Positions 6,989 to 50,238 of a stretch of 64,000 bases of DNA are shown piece after piece (the first letter of the stretch is position 1; every line of letters begins with the position of its first letter). The stretch spans positions 977 to 64,976 of the forward strand of contig JACPPA010000057.1 of assembly GCA_016191285.1 (NCBI GenBank), read 5' to 3'. Position numbers and translations under genes: made by a program. The notes under the pieces were generated by a model. That model saw nothing but the letters and a program-made list of their open reading frames with translations. It was not told the DNA's origin and did not search any database. Origin of the DNA: Gammaproteobacteria bacterium. Its GTDB lineage: Bacteria > Pseudomonadota > Gammaproteobacteria > Ga0077536.

Positions 6989-7547
6989 TTGGCAATCCCT
7001 CGCACCGAGCCGCACCCAATCTTACGACGGGTGCACTGTCCGGCGCCCCGCCGAATAATCGACTGGCGGTTCCGACGATTCCTTCACGCCACTTGCCCGC
7101 CGGAGGAGCGCGAGTGGCTGGAACAGAAATACCCAGGCTGGAACGCGACGTGGGGCAAGGTGTGGGATGAGGCTACGAACAACTTGCTCGCCGGTCGGGA
7201 GGAGCTGACGCTCGCCAATACGCTGCCGTTGATCTGCAACCTGTGTCAGCTGCCGATCGTGCAGACGCCGGGCGAGTCGTGGAAACCCGAGGATCACATG
7301 TTAGTGTACGCGGGGCGGCGCTATTACTTTCAGTCGCATGTCGACAAGTGGGTGTTCCAGCAGAATCCGCGGCGTTACGGTGAGCACAAGTCGCTGGTCG
7401 ATCGCGCGGCGGCCGGCGAAGTGCAGCCGCCGACGTTCGAGGGTGCGCTCAACTACATGGGGCTCGCTCGGCCCTCACGAGCGCGATTACGACGCCAACA
7501 ATTACGCGTGGCTCGAGAGTTTTCGACGCAAGCTGCGCGCGGCCTAA
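6989..7547 (+). pseudogene. Fragment homologous to the C-terminal (YHS-like) ~150 residues of a soluble di-iron monooxygenase alpha subunit; frameshifted near 7455
   Basis: EEREWLEQKYPGW..GKVW, LPLICNLCQLPIV and HMLVYAGRRYYFQSHVDKWVFQQNPRRY parallel the intact alpha (25804-27327) at ERDFDWFEKKYPGW..GKFW, LPTLCRVCHMPGV and RLIDGRKHAFCSAACEHIFREEPHRY; homology continues in frame 0 (PHERDYDANNYAWLESFRRKLRAA* versus PHLDDHRRWTLDDIRALKIE); no N-terminal catalytic domain upstream. Confidence 0.5.
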
Positions 7548-7939
7548 GCCAGCGCGACCTACGAAGGGTGAATAGATCGCTGGTCGCGAAACCCGCACTC
7601 GACGAGTGTGTGGCCCGCCAATTCGGCCGTGCCGCACGCGCCCACCAAGACACCCTGACCGCGATCTTGACCGACGCGCACTTGAAAGACGTGGAACGCG
7701 CACGGCGCTGGACCACGGCGTTCGTCCACTACGGGTTGTCGCAAGCTGAGAACGTGGCAGTGGTCGCAGAGTGGGTCGCACGCTGGCAACCGTTGGCCGA
7801 TCGCGCCATCGACGCCTGGTGTGCCGGACACGGCGGCCGCCGCGCGCGAGGATCGGTTGTTGCAGTGCCGCGTGCACAACGCGTTGTGAGGTAATTCACG
7901 GGCGATTATGCTCGCCGGATCCCGATAGATCGCGCCGCC

Positions 7940-10382
7940 GTGCAATCACCGCTCATTGCCACCAAGTTTGTCCCCCCCGGGCGTGCCGGCGCGCTGGTCG
8001 AGCGTCCATAGCTGTATGCGCGATTAGCCGCTAGCGCTGAGCGACGGTTGGTGTTGGTCAGTGCGCCCGCCGGTTCCGGCAAGACCAGTGCGCTCGCACA
8101 CCTCTACCACGAGCTCGGTAATAGCGACGCCGATGTTGCGTGGTTATCACTCGATGCCGATGACAACGAGCTCGCGCGTTTTCTCGCCTATGTAGTGGAG
8201 AGGCGTTGCGGCGTCGGCATGCACTGTTCGATCAGGCCACGTTGGCCCTGCTCGGTTCCGGTCCCAATCTGCCGCCCGCGATCCCGCGCAATGCTTTTCT
8301 GAACGAGATGGGGGTCTTCACGCAGCCTTGTCACTTGTTTTTCGACGATTGGCATGTGATCGGCGACGCCGAAGTCGAATCCACCGTGGAGCGTCTGTTA
8401 CTCGCGCCGTTGCCGAATGTGCACCTGTGGCGCGCAACCCGCAGCCCCGGACGCTTGCCGCTTGCGCGCCTCCGGGCGCTGGGCGATTTGGATGAGTTGG
8501 GGTCCGCTGAACTTGCATTCAGCGCCGCCGAGGCGGCGCGCTTATTCGATCTCGCCGCCGACGTCACCCTCGCACACCGCAACGTCGGCGACTTTTTGGC
8601 CGATGAAGTGTTTCGCCGCCAGGAACCCGAGTTGCAGACGTTCCTGCTGCAGACTTCCATCCTCCGTCAGTTCAGTACCGCGCTGTGTACCGCGGTCACT
8701 GGCCGCCCTGACGCACGACGGTTCCTCGATCTGATCGAAGCGCGCAACCTTTTTCTGTTTTCACTCGACAGCGAACGCGGCTGGTACCGCTACCACCATT
8801 TATTTTCGGATTTTCTGCGCAAGCGCTTGCATGAGCAGGACACGATTGCCGCCGTTGAGTGTCATCGCCGTGCGTGCGACTGGCTGAGCGGCAATGGATT
8901 TCGCGTGGACGCCATCGAGCACGCCTTCGCCGCGGCCGATCATGAGCGCGCCGGCGCCTTGTTGGATGCGGCCAGCGCCGAGTTGTCGTGGCAGTTCGAT
9001 GTGGCCCGCGCCGCGCTAGCTGACGCGCGGTGCGCTTTGGGGTCTCGTACTACGAGTCTTGCCGCCGACGACCCTGAATCGTTTTTCTGCGCGACGATTT
9101 GGGTACCGCGCTTGATCTCAGCCAGCAATGGTTAGAACAACGGCGCAGTGTAGATGCCATGATGGAGGCTTCGGCCGGCTCGATGTTGATGGCCGCGAGC
9201 CGCGAACACTTCAGCGTCACCGGAGTCAGCGCGAACGCCGCACAATTGCATCAACGCTTCGTCGACGGTGGCGCTATTTACGGCACCGTGTTCCACGACT
9301 CGATCGCGGGCTGCACGCTGTACATGCGCGGCGATCTCGAGGCCGCGGCGGCCGAGTATCTTCGCGCGCGACGCACTGCGATCCAGCTACATGGCGAAGG
9401 TTCGGTACTCGCCGCCATGCCCTCGTCGATGCTCGCCGAGCTGTGGTACGAGCACGATCGAATCGACGACGCACGTGCGCTGATCGCGCGCTACGCGCCG
9501 CTACATGGCGAACTTGGTTTCGTCGATAACCTCATCGCTGTGCACCTGACTGCCGCGCGCCTCGCGGTGCTCGATGGTGACGTCGCGCGTGCCGAACGTG
9601 AGCTGGAAGACGCCGAGCAAGCGGCGTTCTGCTACGGTTTCGAGCGCATGCTCGCCTGCATCCTCGACGAACGCGTTCGACTGGCGCTAGCGGCTGGCGA
9701 TAGTGTGCGAGCCCGCCGGCTGCTCGATGCGCCGCGCTGGCGACCCTGGCTGGAGCATCCAAAGCCGCACGCGCATTCCAATACCATCCAAATGATTGTC
9801 GTGTGTGCGGCGCTGCGGCTCGTACTCGCGGAGGGCATTGGGCAGGATGATGCGCGATTGCTGCGGGCTTGGTTTCGGCATGCCGCCGATCGTCATTGTG
9901 AGCGTGCGGCGGTACGTCTTGGCATGTTGCTGGTTCGCACTCTTGCCCAACGCGAAGGCGAGCTGGCCGCGCGGCGCGCATTGCGCGAGGTGATCGCGCT
10001 CGCTGCCCGCGGTGGTTTCGTGCGCAGCGTGGTCGACGAAGGCCATACCTTGCATGCCCTGCTCGCCGGTCTCGCGACACAAGCTGCTGAGACTAGCGCG
10101 GACGAGGCCAGCTATCTTCGGCGTCTGCTGGCCGCCTTCGGCCGTGAATCGGAACCGGCGGATACCACTGGCACGTCCGATGGCGCTGACGTGGGTCGGC
10201 GCGAACGCGAATTACTCGCGCTGGCGGAGAACGGTCTCGACAATCGCGACATCGCAGCGCGATTGGGACTCGCCGAGAGTACGGTCAAATGGTATTGGCA
10301 GCGCATCTTCACCAAGCTCGGCGTGCATCGTCGCACCCAGGCGTTGCACAAGGCGCGCCGGCTCGGCCTGCTCGAAGGGTGA
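7940..10382 (+). pseudogene. MalT/LuxR-family (AAA ATPase + TPR + LuxR HTH) transcriptional regulator, disrupted by an in-frame TAG at 8009-8011 and at least two -1 frameshifts (near 8195-8210 and 9050-9110)
   Basis: N-terminus SPLIATKFVPPGRAGALVERP*LYARLAASAERRLVLVSAPAGSGKT (Walker A); middle and TPR region spread over frames 2, 1 and 0 (ORFs 8048-8302, 8206-9135, 9099-10382); C-terminal LuxR HTH (LGLAESTVKWYWQRIFTKLGVHRRTQA). Confidence 0.7.
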
Positions 10383-12813: not shown

Positions 12814-13896
12814 ATGCAATTCGGAATTGGCGTCAGCACGCACATCAACAATTGGGACATCATCCGTTACGCCGAGGAACTCGGTTACGACCGCGCGTGG
12901 ATCGGCGACTCGCAGATGATCTGGTCGGATTGCTACGCGACGATGGCGCTCGCCGCGCATCACACGCAGCGCATTCAAATCGGCACGGGTGTTTCCATCA
13001 CCGGCACGCGTATCGCACCGGTGACCGCGCATTCCATTGCGAGTATCAACGCCATCGCGCCGGGACGCACGTTTCTCGGCCTTGGCACTGGCCACACGGC
13101 GATGCGGGTCATGGGCCAGGATCCGATGCGGGTCGGCGAATTCCGCGAATACCTGCGCGTGGTGCGGGCGTTGCTCGACGGCGAGGCGGTTGACTATACC
13201 TACCACGGCAACACACGTGAGATTCAATTCCTGCATCGCGACCGGCACTTTATCGATCTCGATCACCGCATTCCTATCTACGTCGCCGCCAACGGTCCCA
13301 AAGCCTTGGAAGCGACTGGCGCCTTCGGCGATGGCTGGATCACCGTTGGCGGCGAACCCGAAGTCGTCGCGCCCAAATTAGCCCACATCAAAACTGGCGC
13401 CGCCACGGCGGGCCGCACGCTGCCGGCGAACTTCCACACGGCCTTCATCAGCTCGAGCTGTGTGCTGCGGCCCGGCGATAAGTTGACAGACGCTCGTATC
13501 ATCAACGAAACCGGCAGCTGGGTGGCGTGCGAACTGCATTTCTTCTACGAGGTGTGGAAGGATCTGGGTTGCAAGGACGAAGTGGTGCCGCCGCATTTCC
13601 AAGGCATCTGGGCTGACTATCTAAAGCACGTCGAAAAAATGACCTTCCCCGAGCGTTCGCGTTTCCGGCAAATTCACGACGGTCACCTCGTTTACCTGCA
13701 ACCGGACGAGCGCCGGTTCATCACCCCGGATGCGATCAAATCCAGCGCGCTGGTCGGGGAGCCCGACGAGCTCATCGAACATATTCGCCGTCTCGAAAAA
13801 GGCGGCATCAAAGAACTCGATCTATGGCCGCCGATGGATTGCGAGCGCAAAGTGCTGCGCGATTTTGCGGAGTACGTGATGCCGGCGTTTCGGTGA
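12814..13896 (+). CDS. LLM-class flavin-dependent oxidoreductase (luciferase-like monooxygenase; FMN or F420 type)
   Basis: 360 aa; LLM TIM-barrel pattern; strong SD aaggag 8 nt upstream of the ATG. Confidence 0.85.
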   Translation: MQFGIGVSTHINNWDIIRYAEELGYDRAWIGDSQMIWSDCYATMALAAHHTQRIQIGTGVSITGTRIAPVTAHSIASINAIAPGRTFLGLGTGHTAMRVMGQDPMRVGEFREYLRVVRALLDGEAVDYTYHGNTREIQFLHRDRHFIDLDHRIPIYVAANGPKALEATGAFGDGWITVGGEPEVVAPKLAHIKTGAATAGRTLPANFHTAFISSSCVLRPGDKLTDARIINETGSWVACELHFFYEVWKDLGCKDEVVPPHFQGIWADYLKHVEKMTFPERSRFRQIHDGHLVYLQPDERRFITPDAIKSSALVGEPDELIEHIRRLEKGGIKELDLWPPMDCERKVLRDFAEYVMPAFR

Positions 13897-13941
13897 GCCG
13901 TTCGCGACGCGCTCCTCTTAAGAACGTTGAGGAATCAATGC

Positions 13942-14955
13942 ATGGCCGTCATTTTTATTGCGAGCGAAAGCGCGATGTCTTCACTGAAGGATGAACGATT
14001 GGGAGTGGTGCTGTCGACGGTCACCGAGGCGGAAGTCGGCGAATTAATCGAACTCGGTCAGCTCGCGGAAGCACAGGGCTTCGATGCGGTGCTGGTGAAC
14101 GAGGGGCGCGGCGACGCGTTGGCGGCGAGCCAAGCGATTGCGGCCGCGACTGCGCGCGTTACGGTCGGCACCAACATCGCAAACATTTACTTCCGCCACC
14201 CCTTCCTGTGTGCCGCCACCGCGCGGACGATTGCGTCACTCTCCGCTGGACGCTTGCTGCTCGGTCTTGGCATGAGTCATCGTGCCATGCTCGCCTCGCT
14301 CGGCATCGACATGGGCGAGGCACGGCCAACGCTCCGGCGCTATGTGGAGTTCGTCAAAAATGCGCTCGCCGGCAAGGCCACGCAGGGATTTCTTAATCCG
14401 CCGCCATCGACGCATCAGGTTCCGGTTTATGTCGCCGGCAATACCATTGAGAGCGCGGCGGTGGCGGGCGCGGTTGGCGATGGCCTCATGCCGTTTCTAT
14501 CGCCGCTCGGCTATCTACCGACTTTGATCGAAGCGGCGCATATGGCGGCCGTCGATGCCGGACGCAATACTGCCGATTTTGGTTGCTGTCTAAGTATTCC
14601 GACCTTCGTCGCGGAGGACGAAGACGCCGCGCGCTCGGCGGCACGCTACAACCTGGCCTTCTTTGCGCAGCTGCCAAACTATCGCCGGCAATGGCGGCGC
14701 GCCGGTTACGGCACGGCCATGGACGCGGTGCAGGAAACGTGGAAATCGGGGCAACGCCGCGAAGCCGCACGCCAGATCCCGGATGAACTGGTTGAAGAAG
14801 TCTGTGTGTTTGGCGCCGCCGCGCGCTGTCGCGTACAACTCGCGGCGTTTCGCGCGGCAGGCGTTGACCTGCCGGTTATTGCCGTCAGCCCGGTCAACGA
14901 AGATCGGGTGACCGCGACGCGCAAGGCGCTCGTCGCGCTTGCGCCCACGCGCTGA
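13942..14955 (+). CDS. LLM-class flavin-dependent oxidoreductase (second copy)
   Basis: LLM pattern; ATG at 13942 preceded by gaggaa; ORF-track start at 13927 is an alternate TTG. Confidence 0.8.
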   Translation: MAVIFIASESAMSSLKDERLGVVLSTVTEAEVGELIELGQLAEAQGFDAVLVNEGRGDALAASQAIAAATARVTVGTNIANIYFRHPFLCAATARTIASLSAGRLLLGLGMSHRAMLASLGIDMGEARPTLRRYVEFVKNALAGKATQGFLNPPPSTHQVPVYVAGNTIESAAVAGAVGDGLMPFLSPLGYLPTLIEAAHMAAVDAGRNTADFGCCLSIPTFVAEDEDAARSAARYNLAFFAQLPNYRRQWRRAGYGTAMDAVQETWKSGQRREAARQIPDELVEEVCVFGAAARCRVQLAAFRAAGVDLPVIAVSPVNEDRVTATRKALVALAPTR

Positions 14956-19018: not shown

Positions 19019-19501
19019 CTAATCTTTACCCGCAGACAAGACGCTTTTGGCCGCAACCGCGAGCAGAAAAACCACTAAAAAGACGCTGGGGACGCCCGGC
19101 AAAAAAGCCATCAAGCCGACTAGATCAGGCTGACCCAAGGCACTGGGTCCTAAGCTAAGTCCGCGATTGCTTGAGGCATTGCCCAGCCAATAAAACACCG
19201 TGAAGGACCACGCGATGTAAATGAAGCCATAGGCGACGAAACGCTGCATGAAATCGCTTAAGCGCAAGATCGGCAAGGCCAGCGCAACGACTATGACCAA
19301 CACTCCATTCAGTGCCCCTCCCGTGTGTGCTCTCACCCATCCAGCCACCGTGCCGTACATGGGTATTTCGATAATCTTCCCCGGCCATATCTCGATTCCC
19401 CCCAGTAACGAGAACATCAACATAAAGCCGGACAACATCGCCATCAGCACGACGAGCAGTCCGTTGCCAATCATGATCCGTTGTAGTCTTTCCATCTTCA
19501 T
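19019..19501 (-). CDS. Small integral membrane protein (hypothetical, about four transmembrane segments)
   Basis: Start ATG at 19501 (MKMERLQRIMIGNGLLVVLMAML...) preceded by GGGGGAGGG; hydrophobic throughout; the longer ORF-track N-terminus overlaps the upstream gene. Confidence 0.5.
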   Translation of the reverse strand: MKMERLQRIMIGNGLLVVLMAMLSGFMLMFSLLGGIEIWPGKIIEIPMYGTVAGWVRAHTGGALNGVLVIVVALALPILRLSDFMQRFVAYGFIYIAWSFTVFYWLGNASSNRGLSLGPSALGQPDLVGLMAFLPGVPSVFLVVFLLAVAAKSVLSAGKD

Positions 19502-19530: not shown

Positions 19531-20451
19531 TCACCGCAGCGCATGCCGAGACAACACACTTGGAAACGGCACCGGCATATCCGGACTTTTCGTATCGACC
19601 AACGGCAGTAATTCGCTCGCAGGAAGGGTGGCATGCCCCGCAATCCAGTCCTGCATCCATTTAGGATCGTTTTCGCATCGCGGGTTATGCCACGGCAGTA
19701 GCGCCCGTAGCAGGTAGGGGCCGACATTGAAAATCATTGACGAAATTTCCCGCACGAGCGCGGCGAGATTGCGCGGCTTCCGCAATGCCTGGTCTTTCTT
19801 CAACGCCGTGAGCATTCCAATGAGTCCATATCCCACCAAGTGGAAAGAACCGTGGAAGACTCCGAAAGCGCGCGGCAGATATTGCCCTGAGTAGGCCATA
19901 TAGACATCAAAAGCGACTGTCTTGTGCTCGGTCTCTTCGACCATGTGCATCAACCAGAAGGACGCAACATGCGGCGACGCATCGCGAAAGAGCGCAATGC
20001 GCTTGTTGATGAGCCAATGCGTAAAGCCATTGGTCATGCTTTCAAATCCTGCGTTATAGGCGAGCTGCGTACGCAGACTCATTTTCGACAATCGATCGAA
20101 GGACGCCGCCAGCCGCTGCTCGACGCCAGCCAGTTCCGGGTATCCATTAGCCTTCAATAAATCGTTCAGGCGGCGGTGGCACTGGTAGTGGCGTGCCTCT
20201 TGTCCGTTAAACCCACGCATGTCCGCTAATAATTGCGGTTCGTTAATGAACGTCATCGCCTTCTGCGTACTCTTGATCAGATAGGGCTCAAGATAAGGCA
20301 TCGTCAACGACAGTCCGTTAAACAAATGAGAGCGAACCGGGTTAGCGGGGACCCAGATCGGATCGAGATCGTCCGGAAAGTCGAACGCGAACGCTCGAAT
20401 AATGATCTCATCGACTTGCTTTGGTTCGTATCTATACGTGTGTGTTTTCAT
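19531..20451 (-). CDS. Predicted metal-dependent hydrolase-like protein (COG3687/PF10118-like; assignment tentative)
   Basis: 306 aa with HxxEE.EH-type motif (HMVEETEHK); GC noticeably lower (~55%) than flanking genes. Confidence 0.5.
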   Translation of the reverse strand: MKTHTYRYEPKQVDEIIIRAFAFDFPDDLDPIWVPANPVRSHLFNGLSLTMPYLEPYLIKSTQKAMTFINEPQLLADMRGFNGQEARHYQCHRRLNDLLKANGYPELAGVEQRLAASFDRLSKMSLRTQLAYNAGFESMTNGFTHWLINKRIALFRDASPHVASFWLMHMVEETEHKTVAFDVYMAYSGQYLPRAFGVFHGSFHLVGYGLIGMLTALKKDQALRKPRNLAALVREISSMIFNVGPYLLRALLPWHNPRCENDPKWMQDWIAGHATLPASELLPLVDTKSPDMPVPFPSVLSRHALR

Positions 20452-20600: not shown

Positions 20601-20795
20601 CTAGGCGCGATCTGCCGCGCCCTCGCTTAAATCACCGACGTATAGGTGGCATGTTGCACAGGCACAGTTTTCACCGCAATCGCCAGCTATGCCCAGAATA
20701 TTATTGCGCACCGCGACCGTCATTAGCGTCTCGCCCGGCGACGCGTCAACGGTGTGCTCAGTACCATTAAATTCGATGTAGATGATCTTGGCCAC
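20601..20795 (-). CDS. Adrenodoxin/putidaredoxin-type [2Fe-2S] ferredoxin, truncated at 64 aa (C-terminal third including the 4th Cys missing; probable pseudogene)
   Basis: MAKIIYIEFNGTEHTVD...AGDCGENCACATCHLYVGD, then stop; the other frames downstream give no convincing C-terminus. Confidence 0.6.
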   Translation of the reverse strand: MAKIIYIEFNGTEHTVDASPGETLMTVAVRNNILGIAGDCGENCACATCHLYVGDLSEGAADRA

Positions 20796-21246: not shown

Positions 21247-22197
21247 CTACCGTTGGCCTAATTCCCTCAGGCCCGGTAATGCCATTGGCGGCGGCGCGGG
21301 CTCGTTGACAGTTTGAGCGCCGCGCCGGCTGCGCTGGGCAGGCGTCACTTGTTCACGCCGCCTATGGTTCGGCGCAAAGACGCCGTGGTAACGCGTAAGA
21401 GCCTGCCCCGGACTTGATCCGGGATTGACTCTCGGCGTCGGCACCAGGGCTGCGAGTCGAGCAATGAAGTCGAATGGCTCGAACACCCCGTCCGTCGTGC
21501 CATCCCGGTAAGGGGTCTTGAGGCGGTACCGAACGTGGCCTTGAGTCGTTAACGACAACCGCTCAGTCGAGACTGCCGGGCGTGATATAGCGGCACAGGC
21601 GCTCTAGTTTCTCGCGTTCATGTGCCTCGCTCGTCATCCCGGTGTGTAACGAGAACCCGGCTGCTTTCGCGACCGAATTGTTGTCCTCTACTGCGGCGAC
21701 TGCCGGCAGCGTCTGCAAGGCAAACGCTTTGCGACCCTGGCGCGGGCCGAGCGCAATCCGGTAAGTAACGGAATGACCCAAGAGATCATCGAAGCCCGCG
21801 CCGTCAGGCGAGTCCGCAGTCAAAAAGCTATTCTTCAAGACCCGTACCAGCAGGCATTGGTCTTCGAGTGCGCGGCCAACCCGCTCACTGATGGCGCGAA
21901 TCAATTTAAGTTTTTCCGAGCGAGGGTCGGATGACAGTAGATAAGTCTCCGGCACCCACCGCAAACAATCGAATAATCGAATCTCCGGCACCAGTTACTC
22001 CTGTGCCGCGTGAAGCGCACCGTCTCGTCATTCCGGAAGTCGCGCAGCGACTTCCGGAATCTATCGCCTTGCGGTAGTCGTGTATCAGGGGCGGTCACAA
22101 CTGTTTGTGTGCCGCACTCGTCGCAGAACTTCGCGGCAGGCGAAGTTAGCTCCACAGGCAGCGCCGACGCGATTTTTTTAGCGAACCGCGCGGACAC
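21247..22197 (-). mobile_element. ISCR/IS91-family rolling-circle (HUH Y2) transposase remnant: 5'-degraded and frameshifted between ORFs 21563-21991 and 21247-21558
   Basis: YRIALGPRQGRKAFALQTLP, GFSLHTG, KLERLCRYITP, then in another frame LKTPYRDGTTDGVFEPFDFIARLAALVPTPRVN...LTRYHGVFAPNHRRR. These match ISCR1-type transposase C-terminal half motifs (LEQLCRYITRPA, LKLKTPWRDGTT, FMQRLAALVPRPR, IRFHGVLAPN) as recalled from memory. Confidence 0.65.
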
Positions 22198-22387: not shown

Positions 22388-22630
22388 ATGACAACAGCCA
22401 CCCTCACGAGCAAGGGGCAGATCACAATCCCTGTCGAAGTGCGTCAAGCCCTAGGTGTGGATACCGGTGACCGAGTGGAATTTGTTGAGGTAGCGCCTGG
22501 GCGCTACGAATTCATCGCAGCCACGCGGTCAGTCACTGCATTGAAAGGCATGTTCGGCAAACCCCGCAAAACGATATCGATTGAGGAGATGAATACAGCC
22601 ATCGCCAGGCGTGGCGTGGCCGCCAAATGA
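22388..22630 (+). CDS. vapB: AbrB/MazE/SpoVT-family antitoxin (VapB-like)
   Basis: 80 aa; SKGQITIPVEVRQALG swapped-hairpin motif; stop overlaps vapC start (ATGA). Confidence 0.8.
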   Translation: MTTATLTSKGQITIPVEVRQALGVDTGDRVEFVEVAPGRYEFIAATRSVTALKGMFGKPRKTISIEEMNTAIARRGVAAK

Positions 22631-23022
22631 TGGGGCTCGATACTAACGTTGTGGTGCGCTACATCATGCAGGACGACGTCAAGCAGGCTCTGAAGGCTAC
22701 GCAGCTTATCGAATCGCTTTCTGCGGAGGAACCTGGCTTCGTGCCGCTGATAGTGATCGTGGAACTCGGGTGGGTACTGTCATCGGCGTACGCACTCAAT
22801 AGAGACCAACTTTTCGAAGCATTCGAGGGGTTGCTTCGAACCAAAGAATTGATCGTTGAGCGCGCGGAAATCGTGTGGAAGGCGTTGCGCGTTTTTCAAA
22901 CCGCAAACGCGGATTTCGCAGACTCCCTGATTACGTGCTCTGCGGCAGCCGCCGGATGCGCGAGGATAATGACCTTCGATCGCGTCGCCGTAAAAAGCGG
23001 CGGTATGTCGCTGCTAGCTTGA
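22627..23022 (+). CDS. vapC: PIN-domain ribonuclease toxin VapC
   Basis: 131 aa; LDTNVVVRY N-terminal acidic residue, PIN fold pattern, conserved D near the C-terminus. Confidence 0.85.
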   Translation: MMGLDTNVVVRYIMQDDVKQALKATQLIESLSAEEPGFVPLIVIVELGWVLSSAYALNRDQLFEAFEGLLRTKELIVERAEIVWKALRVFQTANADFADSLITCSAAAAGCARIMTFDRVAVKSGGMSLLA

Positions 23023-23431: not shown

Positions 23432-24454
23432 TCAGACCGCCGGGTGAAACTTATCGTAGAAAAGATGATCGGCGCGAATTCCTTTTGCTTCTAAAAGTGT
23501 CCCAACCGCGTCACACATCGCAGGTGCGCCACACAGATAGGCGTCGAAGGGTCTTGCGTCGCCGAGAGCGCGCTGTAAGGCGTGCGTCACCCGGCCGCGT
23601 TGTCCATTCCAGTCGGCGCTGCCTCGCGTGAGACTTGGTACGTAGCTCAGGCGCGAGCCCATGAGCTCCTGCAGTTCAGCCAACTCGTGCTGGCAGGGTA
23701 AGTCCTCGTTAGTTCGCGCGCCATAGTGGAAAATAAAGGGACGCTGATCATTGCGTTCGGCCGCGGCCGCGAGGATTGATAGGATCGGAGAGAGTCCCGA
23801 TCCGGTCGCGCACAGTAGCACCGGCTCTGCACCCGCCCGCAGATAGCTCGTGCCGAAAGGCCCGCGTACCGCAAAGCGCTCGCCGATCGCGAGCACCGGT
23901 AGCTGGCTCGAGAAAGCACCTTCAGGGACCCGTTTGATGATGAACTCTAGGGCGAAGGGCCTCGAAGGTGATGAGGCGATCGAGTATGACCGCCGCAACG
24001 CTGCCCACGGTGGCGTCAATTCGACGAATTGACCTGGATAGAACGGCAGTGGTTCCGATAAGGTCAGCACCAGTCGCCAGAGTGCCGAAGTGAGCTGCGC
24101 GATGCTCTCAACTTCGGCCACGACGTCGCGCGGCAATAGCATCGGTGCAGCGCGCGCATCAGAACCCCCCTGTCCCTCAATAACGAGATCGCTCGCCGGC
24201 CGTGCGCAGCACAATAGTGCGTAACCTTCCTCACGCTGGGCTTCGCTTAGCGAGTAAATTGACGCCCCACCGTGATCGACGTCGCCTTCTTGCAGAAAGT
24301 ATTTGCAGCTCGAACAGTTGCCGTGACGGCAGCCGTAATTGAGAGCGACGCCTTGGCGCAAAGCGGCATCGAGCACGGATTCGTTCGCCGAGACCTCGAA
24401 GCTCGTGCCGTCTGGGTCGATGCGTGCCCGATAAGTGCTTATAGCTTGACTCAC
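23432..24454 (-). CDS. Soluble di-iron monooxygenase NADH oxidoreductase component (N-terminal plant-type [2Fe-2S] ferredoxin + FAD/NAD-binding domain)
   Basis: CRHGNCSSCKYFL...LCCA ferredoxin motif; FNR-like flavin and NAD domains; GTG start overlaps the coupling-protein stop (GTGA). Confidence 0.88.
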   Translation of the reverse strand: MSQAISTYRARIDPDGTSFEVSANESVLDAALRQGVALNYGCRHGNCSSCKYFLQEGDVDHGGASIYSLSEAQREEGYALLCCARPASDLVIEGQGGSDARAAPMLLPRDVVAEVESIAQLTSALWRLVLTLSEPLPFYPGQFVELTPPWAALRRSYSIASSPSRPFALEFIIKRVPEGAFSSQLPVLAIGERFAVRGPFGTSYLRAGAEPVLLCATGSGLSPILSILAAAAERNDQRPFIFHYGARTNEDLPCQHELAELQELMGSRLSYVPSLTRGSADWNGQRGRVTHALQRALGDARPFDAYLCGAPAMCDAVGTLLEAKGIRADHLFYDKFHPAV

Positions 24455-24765
24455 GCGGACGTTACAGGCTCAAAGTCGAGCATCTGCGAGGTCACCCGAA
24501 ATGTTCTCGGATCGGTCATCACGCGGCCGACGAAACTCGACATCACCACCAGCCAGTCCCCGAGCGAGATGAATTCACCCAACTCCTGACCGACCCGGTC
24601 GAGATCGATCACGATCTCGTCGTCGCGCGTCGCGATCATCCAATACGGACCTAGATCTTCGATCCCGATCCGCGGGTGATCGGCGCGCAACACATCCAGG
24701 GTCGCGTCGGCCTCCGCGCTTTTGATCAAGACCACGGCCACGCGGTTACTTTCTGCTACTGACAT
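24451..24765 (-). CDS. Monooxygenase coupling/effector protein (MmoB/DmpM family)
   Basis: 104 aa; MmoB/DmpM-like sequence; SD AGGAGA; overlaps the beta-subunit 3' end by 20 nt. Confidence 0.85.
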   Translation of the reverse strand: MSVAESNRVAVVLIKSAEADATLDVLRADHPRIGIEDLGPYWMIATRDDEIVIDLDRVGQELGEFISLGDWLVVMSSFVGRVMTDPRTFRVTSQMLDFEPVTSA

Positions 24766-25807
24766 GGTCGTCTCCTGGTGAGGTCAGTCCGCACGAGGCG
24801 ACTAACTTGGTTTGGGCGGCCGCCGCCGCTTCGACCAGTGATTCGATCGCAAACAGGGGCTGTGGAATTTGTCGCGCAATCGGTGCGAACGCGGCCGCTG
24901 CCGCCAGTGCTTGGGGCCGCCAGCGCGCTAACCACGTCTGCAACACGCTCCGGTTCTCGGTCGCCGCCGGGCAATCCGCCGCGGTCACCATGCGCACGAA
25001 CTCCGCAGTCCACGCAAGATTGCGCCGACGGTCGCGTTCGGCACTCGTGACGATGAAGGGCGTAATTGAATCGCCATTCAATGCCGATGGCTTCCGCACC
25101 AAGTCACCCAGCGCGACTTCGCTCACGAGCGGTGCAACCACGAGATTGACCGCGACCGCAAGCTCGGCCCAGTCGGTGCACACGATCAAGCGTTCAACCA
25201 ATTGGCGCGCCGGTTGGTAGGCAGGATCAGAGAGCCAGCGCGCCTTCGCGTCACCCTCGCGGAAGCTCGGCACCGACTCTTCGATGGCAAGCAAATGACT
25301 CACGATGGCCTGTCCATGACGCATGTGATCGAAAGCCTGGAAACACAATGCGTTGCCGAGCGTATCGGACAGCGCCTCGCGCTGCGCTGTGGCAAACGCC
25401 CGAAACAGACCGTATTCGAAGAAGGACCATACGCGATAATGGCCAGCAAGGATTCGATCGCGCCAAGTGGGCTCGATGGCCGTAAAACTACCGTCAGCTG
25501 CCGCATCCTCGGCTAACCGCTCGATGGCGCGCTCCTGCTCGGCTTGCATACGTATATACGTACGTTGCCAGTGTTGCGCCGGATCGCGAAACGCAAACCA
25601 GTTCGGGTGAGCGAGCGCGGTTGATTCGGGCCGCCACGGCGCGCGCCCATCGGGCGCTAGTAGAAAGTGCCCACCCTTGTCGAAGCCGCCGGTCTCCCAT
25701 TGCTGATGGACAGTCACCGCTTCGTACTCGGTGAGGCGACGTTTGCGCGGTTTGATGAAGATGAAGTCGCGTCGTTCGTTGCTTGCGAGGTTGATCTGGG
25801 CGTTCAT
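24746..25807 (-). CDS. Soluble di-iron monooxygenase hydroxylase beta (small) subunit
   Basis: 353 aa; ferritin-like beta-subunit pattern; ATG overlaps the alpha stop (ATGA). Confidence 0.85.
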   Translation of the reverse strand: MNAQINLASNERRDFIFIKPRKRRLTEYEAVTVHQQWETGGFDKGGHFLLAPDGRAPWRPESTALAHPNWFAFRDPAQHWQRTYIRMQAEQERAIERLAEDAAADGSFTAIEPTWRDRILAGHYRVWSFFEYGLFRAFATAQREALSDTLGNALCFQAFDHMRHGQAIVSHLLAIEESVPSFREGDAKARWLSDPAYQPARQLVERLIVCTDWAELAVAVNLVVAPLVSEVALGDLVRKPSALNGDSITPFIVTSAERDRRRNLAWTAEFVRMVTAADCPAATENRSVLQTWLARWRPQALAAAAAFAPIARQIPQPLFAIESLVEAAAAAQTKLVASCGLTSPGDDHVSSRK

Positions 25808-27327
25808 GCGAGGCCCTCCGCCGGAAGATCGCGCAGCGGATCGCGGATCTCGATCTTGAGTGCGCGGATATCGTCCAAGGTCCAGCGACGATGGTCATCG
25901 AGGTGCGGTTGCGCGATAAGCGTCTTGCCATCGGCGCGCAGAAACCCGTTCTGTTCAATGAAATCGGCGAGATCCATGCCGTCGAACTCTTCGAACAACG
26001 TTGGCGAACCGAGATAGCGGTGCGGCTCCTCGCGGAAGATGTGCTCGCACGCTGCTGAGCAGAAGGCGTGCTTGCGACCATCTATCAGACGCACGCGCGC
26101 GGTCGAAATATCAGGTCGCGGAAACACGCCAGGCATATGGCATACGCGGCACAGCGTCGGTAGGTGTTCGAACATCTGCATCGGTACCATACCGGAAGCT
26201 GGATCGCTCATTCGGCGATAGTCTTCCCAGAATTTGCCGTAATGACCGTACCAACCGGGATACTTCTTTTCGAACCAGTCGAAATCGCGTTCGGTCAACG
26301 GATCGTGCCGCCAGAATTGGAGTGGCCAAGCGGCAAATACCGCCATTGCCGCGCTGTGTCCGACCCACGGCAGACGTTCGCGCGCATCTTCGAACCAGCG
26401 CGGCACCTGCAAGCCGAAGGGTTCGAGCTTGCGGATGTAGGCACCGGCCCAATCCTCTTCCACCCACTCCCGCCACTTTTCGAGATACGAGCTCGTGCGC
26501 TCCTCTTGGAAGTAGTCGTAGACTGCCGCCAGCAGCGGATCAAGAAAATTGTGTTGGCGCCAAAAGGCGCGATCGAAGTCGCGCTGCAGGTGGGGCAGAT
26601 TGTCGGGCTCGGAGCAGATGGCGGCGAGCGTCGAATAACCGTTCGCCATGTGCCGCGCTTCATCCGACTGAATGCTGAGAAACACCGTCGGCGTCGCCTG
26701 GTCGCCGTTAGCCGCGGCGATTTCGGTCATCGCAACGAACAGCGGATTAGTGAACGCGGTCTCGGTCACGACCTGCAGATTCAACGCTCCTTCAACCGGA
26801 TCGGCGTTGAAGAAACCCTGCAACGCGGCGCGACCGGTGCGACACTGGATATTTTTCGAGCGCAACGCGAAGCCCTGGGCGAAACCTTCAGGGTCCGGCG
26901 CGTGCCGCGCGAGATAACGGGTGAGATGCGCGATCTGATTGTTGTGCCGGACCTCGTCGATCATTTGCGCCATATAGCCCTGGCGAAGCTCGGCATTTTC
27001 GACGGCATCGATGAGCTGGCCGGTCGATTTGATCGCGGCGTATTCGCCGAAACCGGTGACAGGTAACACCAGCTTGAGAATTTCGGTCCAGCGCTGTGAC
27101 GCCTTGCCTGGCAACCCGGCTCTCGCCATCACGTCAGACATCGCACCATATTGGCGGTCGTCCTTCTCCTGCTCCATCGAGCAGTAGTCGCGAATCAAGT
27201 GCCGGAATGGATCCTTAGTCCGGGCAGGGATTTTATATTTGGTCGGATAGCGGTTGGGCTTGTCGACGTAAGAGAGCTTCCAGTCGAAGTTCTTGACGCG
27301 GTCATGAGTCTCGATGATGTTCTGCAC
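25804..27327 (-). CDS. Soluble di-iron monooxygenase hydroxylase alpha (catalytic) subunit, propane/Mim-type (group 5/6-like)
   Basis: Di-iron ligand motifs MIDEVRH and QSDEARH; N-terminal KDPFRHLIRDYCSMEQEKDDRQYGAM and C-terminal YHS-like KKYPGW...HAFCSAACEHIF, both typical of PrmA/MimA-type alphas; GTG at 27327 (VQNIIETHDRVKNFDW) preceded by GGGGAA, chosen by N-terminal homology; the ORF-track frame extends to 27642. Confidence 0.88.
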   Translation of the reverse strand: MQNIIETHDRVKNFDWKLSYVDKPNRYPTKYKIPARTKDPFRHLIRDYCSMEQEKDDRQYGAMSDVMARAGLPGKASQRWTEILKLVLPVTGFGEYAAIKSTGQLIDAVENAELRQGYMAQMIDEVRHNNQIAHLTRYLARHAPDPEGFAQGFALRSKNIQCRTGRAALQGFFNADPVEGALNLQVVTETAFTNPLFVAMTEIAAANGDQATPTVFLSIQSDEARHMANGYSTLAAICSEPDNLPHLQRDFDRAFWRQHNFLDPLLAAVYDYFQEERTSSYLEKWREWVEEDWAGAYIRKLEPFGLQVPRWFEDARERLPWVGHSAAMAVFAAWPLQFWRHDPLTERDFDWFEKKYPGWYGHYGKFWEDYRRMSDPASGMVPMQMFEHLPTLCRVCHMPGVFPRPDISTARVRLIDGRKHAFCSAACEHIFREEPHRYLGSPTLFEEFDGMDLADFIEQNGFLRADGKTLIAQPHLDDHRRWTLDDIRALKIEIRDPLRDLPAEGLA

Positions 27328-27486
27328 AGGATTCCCCGCAACTTGATGAGTGGTAGGTGCGACCCGCGGTGTTGGGATGCTCCCACTCGCCGCTAATTTC
27401 GCCTGCGGTGCACGATAGGGGGTAACGAATTGACAAAAAACAGCTCCGGGTGACATTGTTGTTGTCGTTTGGTGACGATGTGAGCG

Positions 27487-28521
27487 ATGCGCCCATCCGA
27501 AATCGACCGCCTGCTGATGCCAAACACTTACGTCAAACAACTGGCGCAGGAGTTCGGCGATCACGCGCGTCTCACTGCCGGCACAGGTATCGCATCCACC
27601 GAGATCGAGCACTACGCGAAACCCGTCACCGTCGCGCAGCATCTGCAGGTCGTGCGCAACGCGTTAGCCATCGCTGAGCGCCCAGAGTGGTATCTGCAAT
27701 GGGGCCAACGCATGGGAGAACATTTTCACGGCGCCGTCAGCGCGGCCTGGCTCAGCGCGCCGACTTTAGGCGCGGGCCTCGATGCATTCCTGAAATACAT
27801 TCCAAGCCGAGTACCTTACCTGCATTGGCAAGGGCATCGCGATGACGAGACGTTCTGCGCCGAGGTCACGGAGTTGGTTGACCTCGGACCCGTACGCGCC
27901 ATGCTGATCGAGGTTCCGATGATCGTGATGCACGAGTACACGCGAACGATCCGCCCGGGTTCCATAGCCGGGGCGCGGATCGAGCTTGCCTACCGGCCGA
28001 CGCCGCACTGCTACCTCTACTCCAACTGGTTCCAGTGCCCGGTGGCGTTCGAATCGTCGCGCAATGCGCTGGTGATCCCGCACCAGTGGCGTGCGATCGA
28101 TAACGTCGGCTTCGATGAAGGAGTGTGGCAGGCAGCGCTGGCTCGCTGCGAGATTCTATGCGCGACGACGGAGGAACGAGATGCCCTCACGAGGGTTCGA
28201 CAGCTGCTGTTCGATGGCTTCGAGCGGCGGCTCAACGACGGCTCACCGCCGAGCCTGGAGACGGTCGCGGAGCGCTTGCATTGCTCGGCGCGTACCTTGA
28301 TTCGCCGACTGCGGAGTATGGATACCACTTATCAGCAGGTCATCGACGAAGTGCAGCAGCAGCGCGCACGCGAACTACTCAGCAATGAGCGGCTACGCAT
28401 CCACGAAGTCGCTGCGGCCCTGGGCTATCAAGACGCCGCGGGGTTCGTTCGTTCTTTCAAGCGCTGGTATGGTATGACGCCCGGTGATTATCGCAAGCAG
28501 ATCGTGGATCCACCGCTCTGA
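27487..28521 (+). CDS. AraC/XylS-family transcriptional regulator, divergent from the monooxygenase operon
   Basis: C-terminal double HTH (RLRIHEVAAALGYQDAAGFVRSFKRWYGMTPGDYRK); about 160-bp shared intergenic region with the alpha gene; TTGACA at 27430-27435 on the + strand. Confidence 0.85.
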   Translation: MRPSEIDRLLMPNTYVKQLAQEFGDHARLTAGTGIASTEIEHYAKPVTVAQHLQVVRNALAIAERPEWYLQWGQRMGEHFHGAVSAAWLSAPTLGAGLDAFLKYIPSRVPYLHWQGHRDDETFCAEVTELVDLGPVRAMLIEVPMIVMHEYTRTIRPGSIAGARIELAYRPTPHCYLYSNWFQCPVAFESSRNALVIPHQWRAIDNVGFDEGVWQAALARCEILCATTEERDALTRVRQLLFDGFERRLNDGSPPSLETVAERLHCSARTLIRRLRSMDTTYQQVIDEVQQQRARELLSNERLRIHEVAAALGYQDAAGFVRSFKRWYGMTPGDYRKQIVDPPL

Positions 28522-29284: not shown

Positions 29285-29662
29285 ATGCTTGTCGTTCGTC
29301 CATTACCTCTCACACGTGTCAGACGGCCTGTGCTCAGGGTTCGTGCTGTTTGTTCGCGTGTTCTTCCACTCAACGGGATTTCTCCCGTTATTCCAAATGC
29401 GGTGCGTGAGCGCCGTACGCTGTTGAGTTTCTCGGGGTCAGAGTTGTTGATGCGTACCTATCACGGTCATTCGATGACGATGATGAACAACTCGGCGTGG
29501 CAGGCAGCGCGGGTGCGCGTGGGGATGACACAGGTGCGGGTTCACGATCTCAAGCACACATTCGGTCGGCGGCTACGCGCGGCCGGTGTGAGTTTCGAAG
29601 ATCGACAAGACTTGCTTAGACATAAGTCTGGACGCATTACGACACACTATTCAGCAGCGTAA
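29285..29662 (+). pseudogene. Tyrosine recombinase/phage-type integrase, C-terminal fragment only
   Basis: Last ~45 aa carry the catalytic-domain motifs VHDLKHTFGRRLRAAGVSFEDRQDLLRHKSGRITTHYSAA (H-x-x-R...Y); upstream part of the ORF has no integrase similarity; sits next to tRNA-Arg. Confidence 0.55.
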
Positions 29663-29800
29663 TTAGAGAATCTGATTGAAGCTGCAAACAAGGTGTGTGC
29701 GATGCAGTCCCGCAAAAGTCCCGCACTGGTGTTGTTGAAACAAAAAGCGGCTACCAGTGGCTTGGTAACCGCTTGATAGTTAAAAGCTAGTTGGCGCGCC

Positions 29801-29818
29801 CAGAGAGACGGATTCGCG
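29801..29818. repeat. 18-bp direct repeat of the tRNA-Arg 3' end (att-like)
   Basis: tggcgcgcccagagagac identical to 29961-29978. Confidence 0.7.
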
Positions 29819-29957: not shown

Positions 29958-29960
29958 ATT

Positions 29961-30037
29961 TGGCGCGCCCAGAGAGACTCGAACTCCCGACCACCTGGTT
30001 CGAAGCCAGGTACTCTATCCAACTGAGCTATGGGCGC
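29961..30037 (-). tRNA. tRNA-Arg (anticodon read as TCG)
   Basis: 77 nt: GCGCCCATAGCTCAGTTGGATAGAGTACCTGGCTTCGAACCAGGTGGTCGGGAGTTCGAGTCTCTCTGGGCGCGCCA; 7-bp acceptor stem, GTTCGAGTC T-loop, anticodon loop CTTCGAA. Confidence 0.85.
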
Positions 30038-40927: not shown

Positions 40928-42178
40928 ATGAACCGACCCGACAGCGATATTCGCTATCCCACGGGATTGGCTGACCTCAACGATCTCGATCTATTTTCCG
41001 ACGGCCAGCCGCACGACGTTTTTCGACGACTGCGTGAAGAGGCCCCCGTGTTCTGGAATCCAGAAAAAGAGGGGCCGGGCTACTGGGTGATCACCCGATA
41101 CGACGATATCGTTCAGATTTCCAAGAAGCCGAAAATTTTTTCGAACGCCTTGGGCGGGCACTACATCTCGTATGACTCGATGGGCATCACGGATCCCGAA
41201 GCCCAGAATGCTTTTCTTCACATGCTGCTCGCGATGGATCCGCCCGAGCACAACGTGCATCGGCGGCTGATCGCGCCGGCCTTTAATCCGAATATCGTAC
41301 GCAAGTTCGAGGACGGAGTGCGGAATAAAGTCCGAGAACTGCTTGATCGAATCGCGTCGCGCGGTGAATGCGATTTTGTAACCGAGGTGGCGACGCCGCT
41401 GCCACTGTGGACGTTATCGGAATTACTCGGCGTGCCCGAGGCAGATCGCCAAGACATCATCAAGTGGTCGAACGAAGCGTTGGCGCTGCTCGATCCGGAT
41501 TACTTTGCGTCGCCCGCTGCGGGACAACACGTGTTCGTGAAGATGTTCGATTATGGCAAACGCATCATGGCCTTGCGCCGCGAACACCCGGCCGACGATT
41601 TAACCAGCATCATGGCCAATACCCGCATCGATGGCGAAGGTCTACCGCAGGCCACGCTGGACGGCTTCTTCGTGTTGATGATCTTGGCCGGCAATGAGAC
41701 CACGCGAAACACCATCGCCGGCGGCATGCGCGCGCTGACCGAATTTCCCGAGCAGCGCCGCAAGCTGTGCGCGGATCCGTCGCTTATTCCGAATGCGGTC
41801 GAAGAGATGCTGCGTTACGTCAGCGCCATCATCTACATGCGGCGCACCGCGACCGAAGACACCGAAATTCGCGGGCAGAAAATCGCGAAGAACGATAAGG
41901 TGGTGATGTGGTACGGCGGCGCTAACTTCGATTCTGAGGTCTTCGAAAAACCTTATGAGTTCGATGTCACGCGCAGTAATGCGCGCGAACATCTCGCCTT
42001 TGGCATCGGGCAGCATTTTTGCATTGGCTCGCAAGTGGCGCGCATGCAGGTTCGCATCATGTACGAGGAAATTCTGGCGCGCTTTCCCGACATCCGCGCG
42101 GTTGGCAATTATCGCTATTTACGCTCAAATCACTTGAATGGTTTGAAGTCGATGCCGGTGGTATTTACGCCGGAGTGA
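40928..42178 (+). CDS. Cytochrome P450
   Basis: Heme-binding loop FGIGQHFCIGSQ; EMLR (ExxR) motif; AGNETT I-helix. Confidence 0.9.
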   Translation: MNRPDSDIRYPTGLADLNDLDLFSDGQPHDVFRRLREEAPVFWNPEKEGPGYWVITRYDDIVQISKKPKIFSNALGGHYISYDSMGITDPEAQNAFLHMLLAMDPPEHNVHRRLIAPAFNPNIVRKFEDGVRNKVRELLDRIASRGECDFVTEVATPLPLWTLSELLGVPEADRQDIIKWSNEALALLDPDYFASPAAGQHVFVKMFDYGKRIMALRREHPADDLTSIMANTRIDGEGLPQATLDGFFVLMILAGNETTRNTIAGGMRALTEFPEQRRKLCADPSLIPNAVEEMLRYVSAIIYMRRTATEDTEIRGQKIAKNDKVVMWYGGANFDSEVFEKPYEFDVTRSNAREHLAFGIGQHFCIGSQVARMQVRIMYEEILARFPDIRAVGNYRYLRSNHLNGLKSMPVVFTPE

Positions 42179-43790: not shown

Positions 43791-44981
43791 GTGCATTCGA
43801 TTCTCGGTGGAATTCGGGTGGTGGAAGCGGCGACCTTTGTCGCTGGGCCCGCGGCAGGGACGATCATGGCGGATTTCGGCGCCGATGTGATCCACATCGA
43901 GCCACCAGGAATTGGCGACGCCTACCGCTATTTGTACAAGCTGCGACCGCTGCCGGAATGCGCGGAGAACTACCCGTGGCTCCTCGATTCGCGCAACAAA
44001 AAATCGATCACCCTGAACTTGAAGCGGCCCGCCGGGCGCGCGGCGCTTTATCGACTGCTGGAGACGGCAGACGTCTTTATCACTAACTATCAACCTTCCG
44101 TGCTCAGCGATCTTGGCGTCCGTTTCGAGGATATCGACGGCTTGAGCGCGCGATTGATCTACGCGCATGTCACGGGTTATGGCGACGCGGGCGCCGAAGT
44201 CGAGCGGCCCGGTTACGACGCGACGGCATGGTGGGCGCGCTCTGGCATGATGGACCTCATTCGTCCGCACGGCGGCGAACTCGCGTTGTCGGCGCCCGGC
44301 ATGGGCGATCATCCGACCGCAGTCGCTCTGTTCGGTGCGATCATGCTCGCGCTGTATCGTCGCGAGCGCACCGGCCAGGGCGGAAAGGTGTCGACCTCGC
44401 TGATGGCGAACGGCGTGTGGGCCAATGGCATCCTTGCCCAGGCAGCACTGTGCGGGGCGACGTTCTTCGAACGCGGCACCCACGCTGAATCGCCGAATCC
44501 GTTGATCGCGGTTTATCAGACTCTGGACGAACGCCATTTTTCACTGGTGATGGTGAAAGAGGCGCACGAATGGGATCTCTTCTGTACTGCGATCGCGCGC
44601 CCGGAATTGGGCGCCGATCCGCGTTTCGAGTCGTCGGCCAAACGGCGCGAACACGCGTCGGCGCTGGTCGCGATCCTCGATCAAGTGTTCGCCACTAAGA
44701 CGCTCGCCGAGTGGAGTGCCATCCTGGACCAGCATCGCGTGACCTTCGGGGTCGTGCAGAAGAGTGAGGCCTTGCCGAGCGATGCGCAGATGCTTGCGAA
44801 CGGTGTGTTTCCGGAGATCGTCGATTTGCCGGGCCGGCGGACGGTCGATTCGCCGATTAACGTCGACGGTACCACGAAGATCCCGCCGCAGGCGGCGCCG
44901 GCGCTCGGCGCACATACGCGCGAAGTGCTGCAGAACCTCGGCTATTCAGACGCCGAGATCACGGCGATGGCCGCGGATTAA
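43791..44981 (+). CDS. CoA-transferase family III (CaiB/BaiF) protein
   Basis: Family III N-terminal pattern (GIRVVEAATFVAGPAAGTIMADFGADVIHIEPP) and conserved active-site Asp region. Confidence 0.9.
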   Translation: MHSILGGIRVVEAATFVAGPAAGTIMADFGADVIHIEPPGIGDAYRYLYKLRPLPECAENYPWLLDSRNKKSITLNLKRPAGRAALYRLLETADVFITNYQPSVLSDLGVRFEDIDGLSARLIYAHVTGYGDAGAEVERPGYDATAWWARSGMMDLIRPHGGELALSAPGMGDHPTAVALFGAIMLALYRRERTGQGGKVSTSLMANGVWANGILAQAALCGATFFERGTHAESPNPLIAVYQTLDERHFSLVMVKEAHEWDLFCTAIARPELGADPRFESSAKRREHASALVAILDQVFATKTLAEWSAILDQHRVTFGVVQKSEALPSDAQMLANGVFPEIVDLPGRRTVDSPINVDGTTKIPPQAAPALGAHTREVLQNLGYSDAEITAMAAD

Positions 44982-50067: not shown

Positions 50068-50238
50068 GATTCTTGGTCTCCAGAAACGTTGATATCCCGG
50101 CGACTTCAGCAGCGTTGTCGGGTGGGAAAGCGCAGTGCACCCGCCGAATGGGATCAACACGATCCGGCCCCAGTACTATGCATCGCCAGGGCAATCGTGC
50201 GATCTAATCGAAGGACGTGGCACGCCTGCGTTTTAAGG

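Follow-up and report, generated by a model that had tools for sequence, protein, structure and literature searches.

Group-6 soluble di-iron monooxygenases (SDIMOs), rare and with few characterised members, are relevant to how gaseous alkanes, 1,4-dioxane, tetrahydrofuran and chlorinated solvents are biodegraded. Among the described systems, Rhodococcus aetherivorans BCP1 depends on SmoABCD to grow on C4-C6 alkanes; the same enzyme allows growth on propane and breaks down chloroform and trichloroethane (PMC11057499). PrmABCD of Mycobacterium dioxanotrophicus PH-06 acts on tetrahydrofuran and 1,4-dioxane (PMC11825192). The canonical gene order of the group is alpha-beta-coupling-reductase (PMC11825192), in which smoA, smoB, smoC and smoD of BCP1 have also been assigned; the accessory genes of BCP1 are required for heterologous growth on alkanes, and a GroEL-like chaperonin for heterologous activity of actinobacterial members (PMC11057499). 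A subgroup A of uncharacterised sequences, originating mostly from metagenome-assembled genomes (MAGs) of Pseudomonadota, has been recognised within the group (PMC11825192), and no report of a gammaproteobacterial group-6 enzyme was found in the literature checked. Here we analyse an SDIMO locus in a 64-kb stretch of DNA from the MAG of an uncultured gammaproteobacterium (contig JACPPA010000057.1), the whole of which is referred to as “the window”. Its four enzyme genes (23432-27327, minus strand) most probably encode a group-6 SDIMO of the propane-1-monooxygenase kind belonging to a Pseudomonadota subclade and, to judge from gene content and neighbourhood, would form a mobile module together with a divergent AraC-type regulator, its likely activator.

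The four genes are transcribed from the minus strand in the order alpha, beta, coupling protein and reductase, each of them overlapping the next, and each product was recognised by Pfam. The alpha hydroxylase subunit (25804-27327, 507 aa, GTG start) matches Phenol_Hydrox (2.8e-51) and, weakly, YHS. The beta hydroxylase subunit (24746-25807, 353 aa, ATG start) also matches Phenol_Hydrox (1.1e-56), along with the MmoY-like NCBIfam model (9e-56, under the equivalog cut-off). The coupling or effector protein of the MmoB/DmpM family (24451-24765, 104 aa) matches MmoB_DmpM (6e-13) and an MmoB-like NCBIfam model, likewise under the equivalog cut-off. The NADH:acceptor reductase (23432-24454, 340 aa, GTG start) combines a plant-type [2Fe-2S] ferredoxin domain at its N-terminus with the FAD and NAD domains that follow it (Fer2, FAD_binding_6, NAD_binding_1), its MmoC-like NCBIfam match (3.5e-61) being again under the equivalog cut-off. 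The complete four-component SDIMO proposed in an earlier note on this DNA is thus confirmed by the gene calls and by Pfam, at the coordinates it had given. The same note had described the gene junctions as ATGA and GTGA overlaps, which is correct for alpha/beta, where the beta ATG lies on the alpha stop, and for coupling/reductase, where the reductase GTG lies on the stop of the coupling protein; beta and coupling genes overlap by 20 nt and not by 4. Since the four genes overlap, they are probably translationally coupled and form one operon. A GGAG-like ribosome-binding site is found upstream of every start in the operon, and the same five gene boundaries, regulator included, were returned by an independent gene caller for Logan SRR12113392, in which the same population was assembled from short reads.

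The start of the alpha subunit required a choice among three candidates. A 550-aa form is given in the NCBI record (MBI2803265.1), starting at 27456, only 30 nt from araC; its 43-aa N-terminal extension has a counterpart in no homologue, and it was rejected in favour of the GTG at 27327, to which the ATG starts of eight homologues correspond in the alignment. This position is kept in the alignment of eight loci, and the second gene caller agrees on it. The longest open reading frame (ORF), extending to 27642, was rejected because it overlaps araC.

The affiliation of the alpha subunit was analysed in an alignment of 87 sequences, in which it shows its highest identity to reference enzymes with those of group 6, namely SmoA of NBB4 (58.5%) and PrmA of PH-06 (56.7%). 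Identity falls to 45.3% with EtnC (group 4), to 41.4% with the Smo-like alpha of Rhodococcus ZPP and 38.9% with MmoX (group 3), to 39.4% with the PrmA-like alpha of Methylocella tundrae and 37.4% with ThmA of R. ruber (group 5), and to 26.4% and 25.1% with the phenol and toluene enzymes DmpN and TmoA, with which the window alpha does not cluster. A tblastn comparison with annotated plasmids gave the same ranking: 58% for pMYCCH.01 of Mycolicibacterium chubuense NBB4, 57% for Rhodococcus ZPP and WAY2 and 56.5% for PH-06, followed by EtnC (45%), an actinobacterial enzyme resembling soluble methane monooxygenase (sMMO; 43%) and group-5 or proteobacterial Prm-like enzymes (36-38%). Near-identical DNA was also sought in plasmids, without any match. 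The closest relatives, with alpha subunits 63-83% identical, occur in Gammaproteobacteria and other Pseudomonadota MAGs and in Panacagrimonas, and share the same four-gene order.

A neighbour-joining tree of the 87-sequence alignment (100 bootstraps, toluene/phenol sequences as outgroup) places the window with six loci from Gammaproteobacteria MAGs (L087 and L001-L005 of our survey of related loci) in a clade supported by 100% of the bootstraps. This clade joins a wider Pseudomonadota clade including Panacagrimonas (94%). Next out are a mixed clade of Chloroflexota, Dormibacterota, Myxococcota and Mycobacterium, then the clade of the characterised PH-06 and NBB4 enzymes, all of these branching before groups 3, 4 and 5. 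The alpha phylogeny against reference SDIMO groups, which the earlier note had suggested as a check, therefore groups the window with group-6 references. By its taxonomic composition, the subclade of the window probably corresponds to the uncharacterised subgroup A of PMC11825192. The two closest MAGs, SJ420 (L001 and L021) and the one represented by chromosome OZ257136.1 (L002 and L020), each harbour two paralogous group-6-type alphas; the AraC-linked paralogue is 82-83% identical to the window alpha, and the AraC-free paralogue, which belongs to the sister clade, 67%.

The order of the genes, reported as atypical in the earlier note, turns out to be the norm of group 6. The NBB4, PH-06 and Rhodococcus WAY2 operons are annotated as alpha, beta, MmoB-like protein and reductase, in agreement with the literature cited above, and of the 79 related loci surveyed by tblastn more than 40, representing at least six phyla, have this order as well. 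Group 4 displays the order beta-coupling-alpha-reductase, the actinobacterial group-3-like cluster has an extra gamma gene following the reductase, and the operons of groups 1 and 2 (toluene/phenol) comprise six genes, among them one for a gamma subunit and in some cases one for a ferredoxin. Other orders also exist with alphas at 49-55% identity to that of the window: each of the two deviating arrangements, reductase-alpha-beta-coupling and beta-coupling-alpha-reductase, is carried by one of two sets of loci, L059, L060, L063, L066 and L070 (MAGs of Sporichthyaceae and other Actinomycetota) and L061, L062, L065, L069, L074 and L078, several of the beta-coupling-alpha-reductase records being titled “Enterobacteriaceae”, perhaps by mislabelling.

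The earlier note had also assigned the enzyme to the PrmA/MimA type, which amounts to a group-5 propane-2/acetone/phenol monooxygenase whose genes were rearranged to an sMMO-like order. The enzyme does resemble group 5 in having four components and no gamma subunit, and a four-cysteine/YHS motif in the C-terminal part of its alpha subunit (C393, C396, C423 and C427) recurs in one of the two group-5 references. This motif is invariant in all group-6-type sequences examined, and is also present in group 4 and in DmpN. The 37-39% identity to the two group-5 alphas, against 57-58% to those of group 6, is under the 40% cut-off for group-5 membership given in the review (PMC11825192), and the tree separates the window from them. 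The group-5 loci checked, thmADBC of R. ruber and the prm-like cluster of Methylocella tundrae, run alpha-reductase-beta-coupling, whereas the order in the window is native to group 6. As far as sequence can test it, the group-5 assignment is refuted, and we consider it of negligible probability.

Descent from group 3 (sMMO, butane monooxygenase and Smo-like enzymes) by loss of the gamma subunit and MmoD is a second possibility, suggested by the order alpha-beta-coupling-reductase, which resembles the group-3-like cluster of Rhodococcus ZPP, and by the best match of the alpha among solved structures, the sMMO subunit MmoX (7e-121, compared with about 1e-40 for phenol hydroxylase and about 1e-30 for toluene monooxygenases). 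The PDB sequence matches include no solved alpha of groups 4, 5 or 6, and MmoX is therefore the nearest solved relative only. Identities to MmoX and to the actinobacterial group-3-like alpha both lie under the 50% cut-off for group 3 (PMC11825192), and the four-cysteine motif is missing from MmoX of M. capsulatus. As the earlier note had stated, the locus has no gamma subunit: a Rhodococcus group-3 query retrieved no homologue by tblastn across the 64 kb (best E 0.29), adjacent positions included. A reduced group-3 enzyme is accordingly very improbable, only slightly less so than one of group 5, and assignment to group 6 is retained.

All six di-iron ligands are present in the alpha subunit when aligned to MmoX (E95, E125, H128, E189, E223 and H226), corroborating the two E..EX2H motifs previously recognised in it, and T193 and N194, equivalent to T213 and N214 of MmoX, are conserved as well. 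The position of MmoX C151 is occupied by I132 in the window and by Q, V, I or A across its seven-member clade, when most of the other group-6 sequences examined have E (Q in some subgroup-B members). Compared with L087, a 96%-identical relative, the ratio of non-synonymous to synonymous substitution rates (dN/dS) is 0.034 for the alpha gene and 0.10 for araC, these low values indicating that both are under purifying selection and not decaying.

In NBB4, PH-06 and WAY2, genes for GroEL, alcohol dehydrogenase, aldehyde dehydrogenase and a histidine kinase with a LuxR regulator are linked to the monooxygenase genes, the accessory genes coming after the reductase. None of the GroEL (NBB4 and ZPP queries), NDMA-dependent alcohol dehydrogenase and aldehyde dehydrogenase queries gave a tblastn match in the 64 kb of the window. 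The operon contains no ferredoxin or MmoD-type gene, for which the overlaps leave no space, and the ORFs downstream are a toxin-antitoxin pair and insertion sequence (IS) fragments. The other proteobacterial loci likewise lack an adjacent GroEL gene. These linked genes are only partly conserved even among actinobacteria, and accessory and regulator genes do not therefore define group 6.

The regulator gene (27487-28521, plus strand, 344 aa) diverges from the operon and encodes an AraC/XylS-family protein with Arabinose_bd and HTH_18 domains (Pfam). Its best NCBIfam match is CypR (1.4e-45); with a score of 156 bits for an equivalog cut-off of 500 bits, it is taken as a member of the AraC/XylS family and not as a CypR orthologue. 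The divergent arrangement of CypR-type AraC regulators with CYP153 alkane hydroxylase genes is well established (PMC8784404), and no description of their pairing with a group-6 SDIMO was found in the literature searched. L001-L005, L087 and L089 (L088 is on the same contig as L003) have an araC gene, 56-89% identical, placed and oriented as in the window, and none of the other related loci surveyed has one beside it; judged on this distribution, the AraC regulator is specific to the subclade of the window. In the sister-clade locus L095, a full-length MalT/LuxR-type regulator convergent to the group-6 operon is found instead. The divergent AraC regulator pointed out in the earlier note is consequently real and conserved in the eight closest loci. 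The contrast that had been drawn with an NtrC-type regulator is misplaced, as NtrC fits groups 5 and 3 and actinobacterial group 6 uses a histidine kinase and LuxR.

The control region between the alpha and araC starts (27328-27486) spans 159 bp. It holds three copies of GTCA(C/A) (27472-27476, 27450-27454 and 27430-27434) spaced by 20-22 nt, which belong to a block beside the araC start that the intergenic alignment shows to be shared by eight loci. These repeats are putative AraC half-sites. A scan of the operon region gave no match to a sigma-70 consensus promoter, which would fit an activator-dependent promoter. The middle motif reads TGGCA(C/G)-N7-(A/C)GCTT, with the spacing of sigma-54 -24/-12 elements, in five of the more distant loci, L001, L002, L004, L005 and L089, and TGTCA in L087, L088 and the window (TGTCAC in the latter), GG being replaced by GT and one base inserted. 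Owing to this TGTCA and its extra base, a sigma-54 promoter is not claimed for the window. Around the five loci with the sigma-54-like motif, a gene for an enhancer-binding protein is not evident, the adjoining regulator being AraC.

A mechanism can be proposed for this group-6 system by transfer from its family, the window itself contributing the presence of the domains and ligands. The reductase would take two electrons from NAD(P)H, and these would travel by way of its FAD and [2Fe-2S] cluster to reach the carboxylate-bridged di-iron centre that the alpha subunit holds in an (alpha-beta)2 hydroxylase devoid of gamma. The MmoB-like protein would bind this hydroxylase and couple O2 activation to substrate oxidation. 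The divergent CypR-like regulator, bound to the GTCA(C/A) repeats of the 159-bp region, would most likely activate transcription, and the five genes would act as a self-contained and mobile module in a degraded island beside a tRNA-Arg gene. By analogy with the characterised members of group 6, a trait of which is the terminal (C1) oxidation of propane and butane, the substrates are likely to be short-chain (C2-C6) alkanes that are oxidised terminally, with alkenes, cyclic ethers and chlorinated alkanes being co-oxidised.

Several observations weigh against this interpretation or parts of it. The deep nodes of the alpha tree are weak, the one at which the window clade meets the characterised group-6 enzymes having a bootstrap of 41-70% in what is a distance tree and not a maximum-likelihood one; with such support, assignment to group 6 is based on identity, gene order and topology combined. 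The Pseudomonadota subgroup of group 6 has no characterised member (PMC11825192), and the substrate prediction is for this reason extrapolated over a sequence divergence of about 43%. With no alcohol or aldehyde dehydrogenase gene linked to the operon, a growth-supporting alkane pathway is not evident, and no GroEL-like chaperonin is linked to it either. Moreover I132, at a position near the active site, could confer a different specificity.

The genomic setting of the module suggests a history of integration. A tRNA-Arg(TCG) gene (29961-30037, minus strand) was predicted by ARAGORN and matched by Rfam (68 bits) on the araC side, and the 19 nt of its 3' end (29960-29978) are exactly repeated at 29791-29809, 169 bp away. 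Near this repeat, a plus-strand ORF (29285-29662) encodes a C-terminal fragment of a tyrosine recombinase, or phage-type integrase (Phage_integrase, 1.3e-06), covering profile positions 105-167 only. The repeat of the tRNA 3' end and the truncated integrase are a hallmark of past integration, once or repeatedly, and the tRNA-Arg gene is the probable integration site of the island carrying the module. A search allowing up to 3 mismatches detected no distal att copy in the window, and no other repeat bounding the island was seen. Downstream of the reductase, Pfam identified a MazE/AbrB antitoxin gene (22388-22630) and a PIN toxin gene (22627-23022), both on the plus strand, then fragments of an IS91-type transposase (Y2_Tnp, 21247-21558, minus strand). 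These adjoin a 64-aa N-terminal fragment of a [2Fe-2S] ferredoxin (20601-20795, minus strand), which spans positions 2-49 of the 77 of the Fer2 profile. The G + C content falls to 54-57% on either side of the module, and the SRR12113392 contig stops near 18.3 kb and 30.0 kb. Synteny with the relatives does not extend past the five genes, their flanks being unrelated; hence the module behaves as a self-contained unit in a degraded, tRNA-linked island.

Such surroundings could mean that the operon itself has lost its function and is decaying as the cargo of a mobile element no longer active, all the more so as integrase, IS91 transposase and ferredoxin are truncated around it and a second SDIMO elsewhere in the window is reduced to a fragment. 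Opposed to this are the five intact reading frames with every catalytic residue in place, the dN/dS values of the alpha and araC genes and the maintenance of the module in eight loci, making decay a highly doubtful explanation and favouring an intact module within a degraded island. The second, unrelated SDIMO is represented by an ORF at 6989-7894 (plus strand). Its region 7088-7468 in particular encodes the C-terminal ~127 residues of a TmoA-like alpha (57% identity to TmoA of Paraburkholderia pSYM, E 4e-46), fused within this ORF to a beta-like Phenol_Hydrox C-terminal piece. It lacks the half carrying the di-iron ligands and is therefore a pseudogene fragment. Beside it, a MalT/LuxR-type regulator is apparently split into two overlapping plus-strand ORFs (8206-9135 and 9099-10382).

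The operon had previously been seen as part of an alkane/alkene/ether oxidation island on account of neighbouring genes, which indeed exist: two P450s (40928-42178 and 50735-51973), an epoxide hydrolase (48910-50160), a CoA-transferase (43791-44981), EthD (46929-47234) and two luciferase-like monooxygenases (12814-13896 and 13927-14955). They are located 8.5-24 kb from the operon and are not syntenic with it in any relative; between it and those of the araC side (P450s, epoxide hydrolase, CoA-transferase and EthD) lie the tRNA gene, pntAB, a pair of ActP-like (acetate-permease-like) genes and a gene for a histidine kinase. The interpretation as an oxidation island is not retained, and a single pathway joining the flanking genes and the monooxygenase is not supported by any evidence. 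The PntB protein of this region (MBI2803269.1) has its nearest named relatives in Methylococcaceae (~80% identity).

Two other minus-strand genes are found 4 kb downstream of the operon and on its strand. The first (19019-19495) encodes a 158-aa membrane protein homologous to styrene oxide isomerase (PDB 8pnu, 3e-26), in which the RAH..ALNG segment is kept, and the second, beside it (19531-20451), a PF10118 “predicted metal-dependent hydrolase”; this pair is unlinked to the operon in every relative. A clear isomerase homologue so close, and an epoxide hydrolase gene 21 kb away, raise the alternative that an enzyme of the same family has alkene epoxidation as its physiological role, the epoxide being handed to one or other of these enzymes. 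Alkene epoxidation is general among SDIMOs, and the replacement in the window clade of the E common in group 6 at the MmoX C151 position also speaks for this possibility. On the other hand, both epoxide-processing genes are unlinked to the operon in all relatives, the IS91 fragments, the toxin-antitoxin pair and the truncated ferredoxin stand between isomerase and operon in a proximity that looks accidental, and no coenzyme M, glutathione or coenzyme A epoxide-pathway genes are adjacent. We therefore regard a dedicated role in epoxidation as unlikely, and oxidation of short-chain alkanes remains the preferred prediction.

The locus leaves the understanding of the SDIMO family unchanged, and its group-6 kind, its canonical gene order and the existence of a Pseudomonadota branch are already known. 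What is modestly new is that the AraC regulator is conserved, that neither chaperonin nor dehydrogenase genes are linked to the operon, and that the module lies in an island. A bolder and rather doubtful proposal is that the AraC-linked subclade constitutes a functionally distinct branch of group 6, folding without a dedicated GroEL-type chaperonin, remodelled at the MmoX C151 position (E to I, Q, V or A) and perhaps differing from actinobacterial propane-1-monooxygenases in substrate or inducer. If this were true, it would provide the first enzyme of the group-6 type that Pseudomonas or E. coli could readily express, accompanied by a ready-made AraC-type sensor of small hydrocarbons. As a compact five-gene module of regulator and enzyme from a Gram-negative host, without a linked chaperonin gene, the locus could reasonably be tried for heterologous expression and as the basis of an AraC-dependent hydrocarbon biosensor.

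Compared with the known systems, the window locus is closest to PrmABCD of PH-06 and SmoABCD of BCP1 and NBB4, with which it shares the four-gene order, the lack of gamma, 57-58% alpha identity, identical ligands, the four-cysteine motif and an association with mobile DNA. It differs from these actinobacterial systems by its gammaproteobacterial host, by a divergent AraC/CypR-like regulator in the place of a histidine kinase and LuxR, by the lack of downstream genes for GroEL, NDMA-dependent alcohol dehydrogenase and aldehyde dehydrogenase, and by I instead of E at the MmoX C151 position. With sMMO (MmoXYBZDC) it has in common the alpha fold, the ligands, the T213/N214 pair and the MmoY-, MmoB- and MmoC-like nature of beta, coupling protein and reductase. 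It departs from sMMO by an alpha identity of 39%, by the lack of an MmoZ gene and of space for MmoD between the overlapping genes, by the four-cysteine motif lacking in MmoX, and by pocket residues (MmoX L110, F188 and G208 being replaced by T, A and T, respectively). The regulator, finally, resembles the CypR regulators of CYP153 in Alcanivorax and Dietzia in its domain architecture and in its divergent orientation across an intergenic region of ~115-160 bp. It differs from them in scoring far below the equivalog cut-off and in being paired with an SDIMO as target enzyme instead of a P450.

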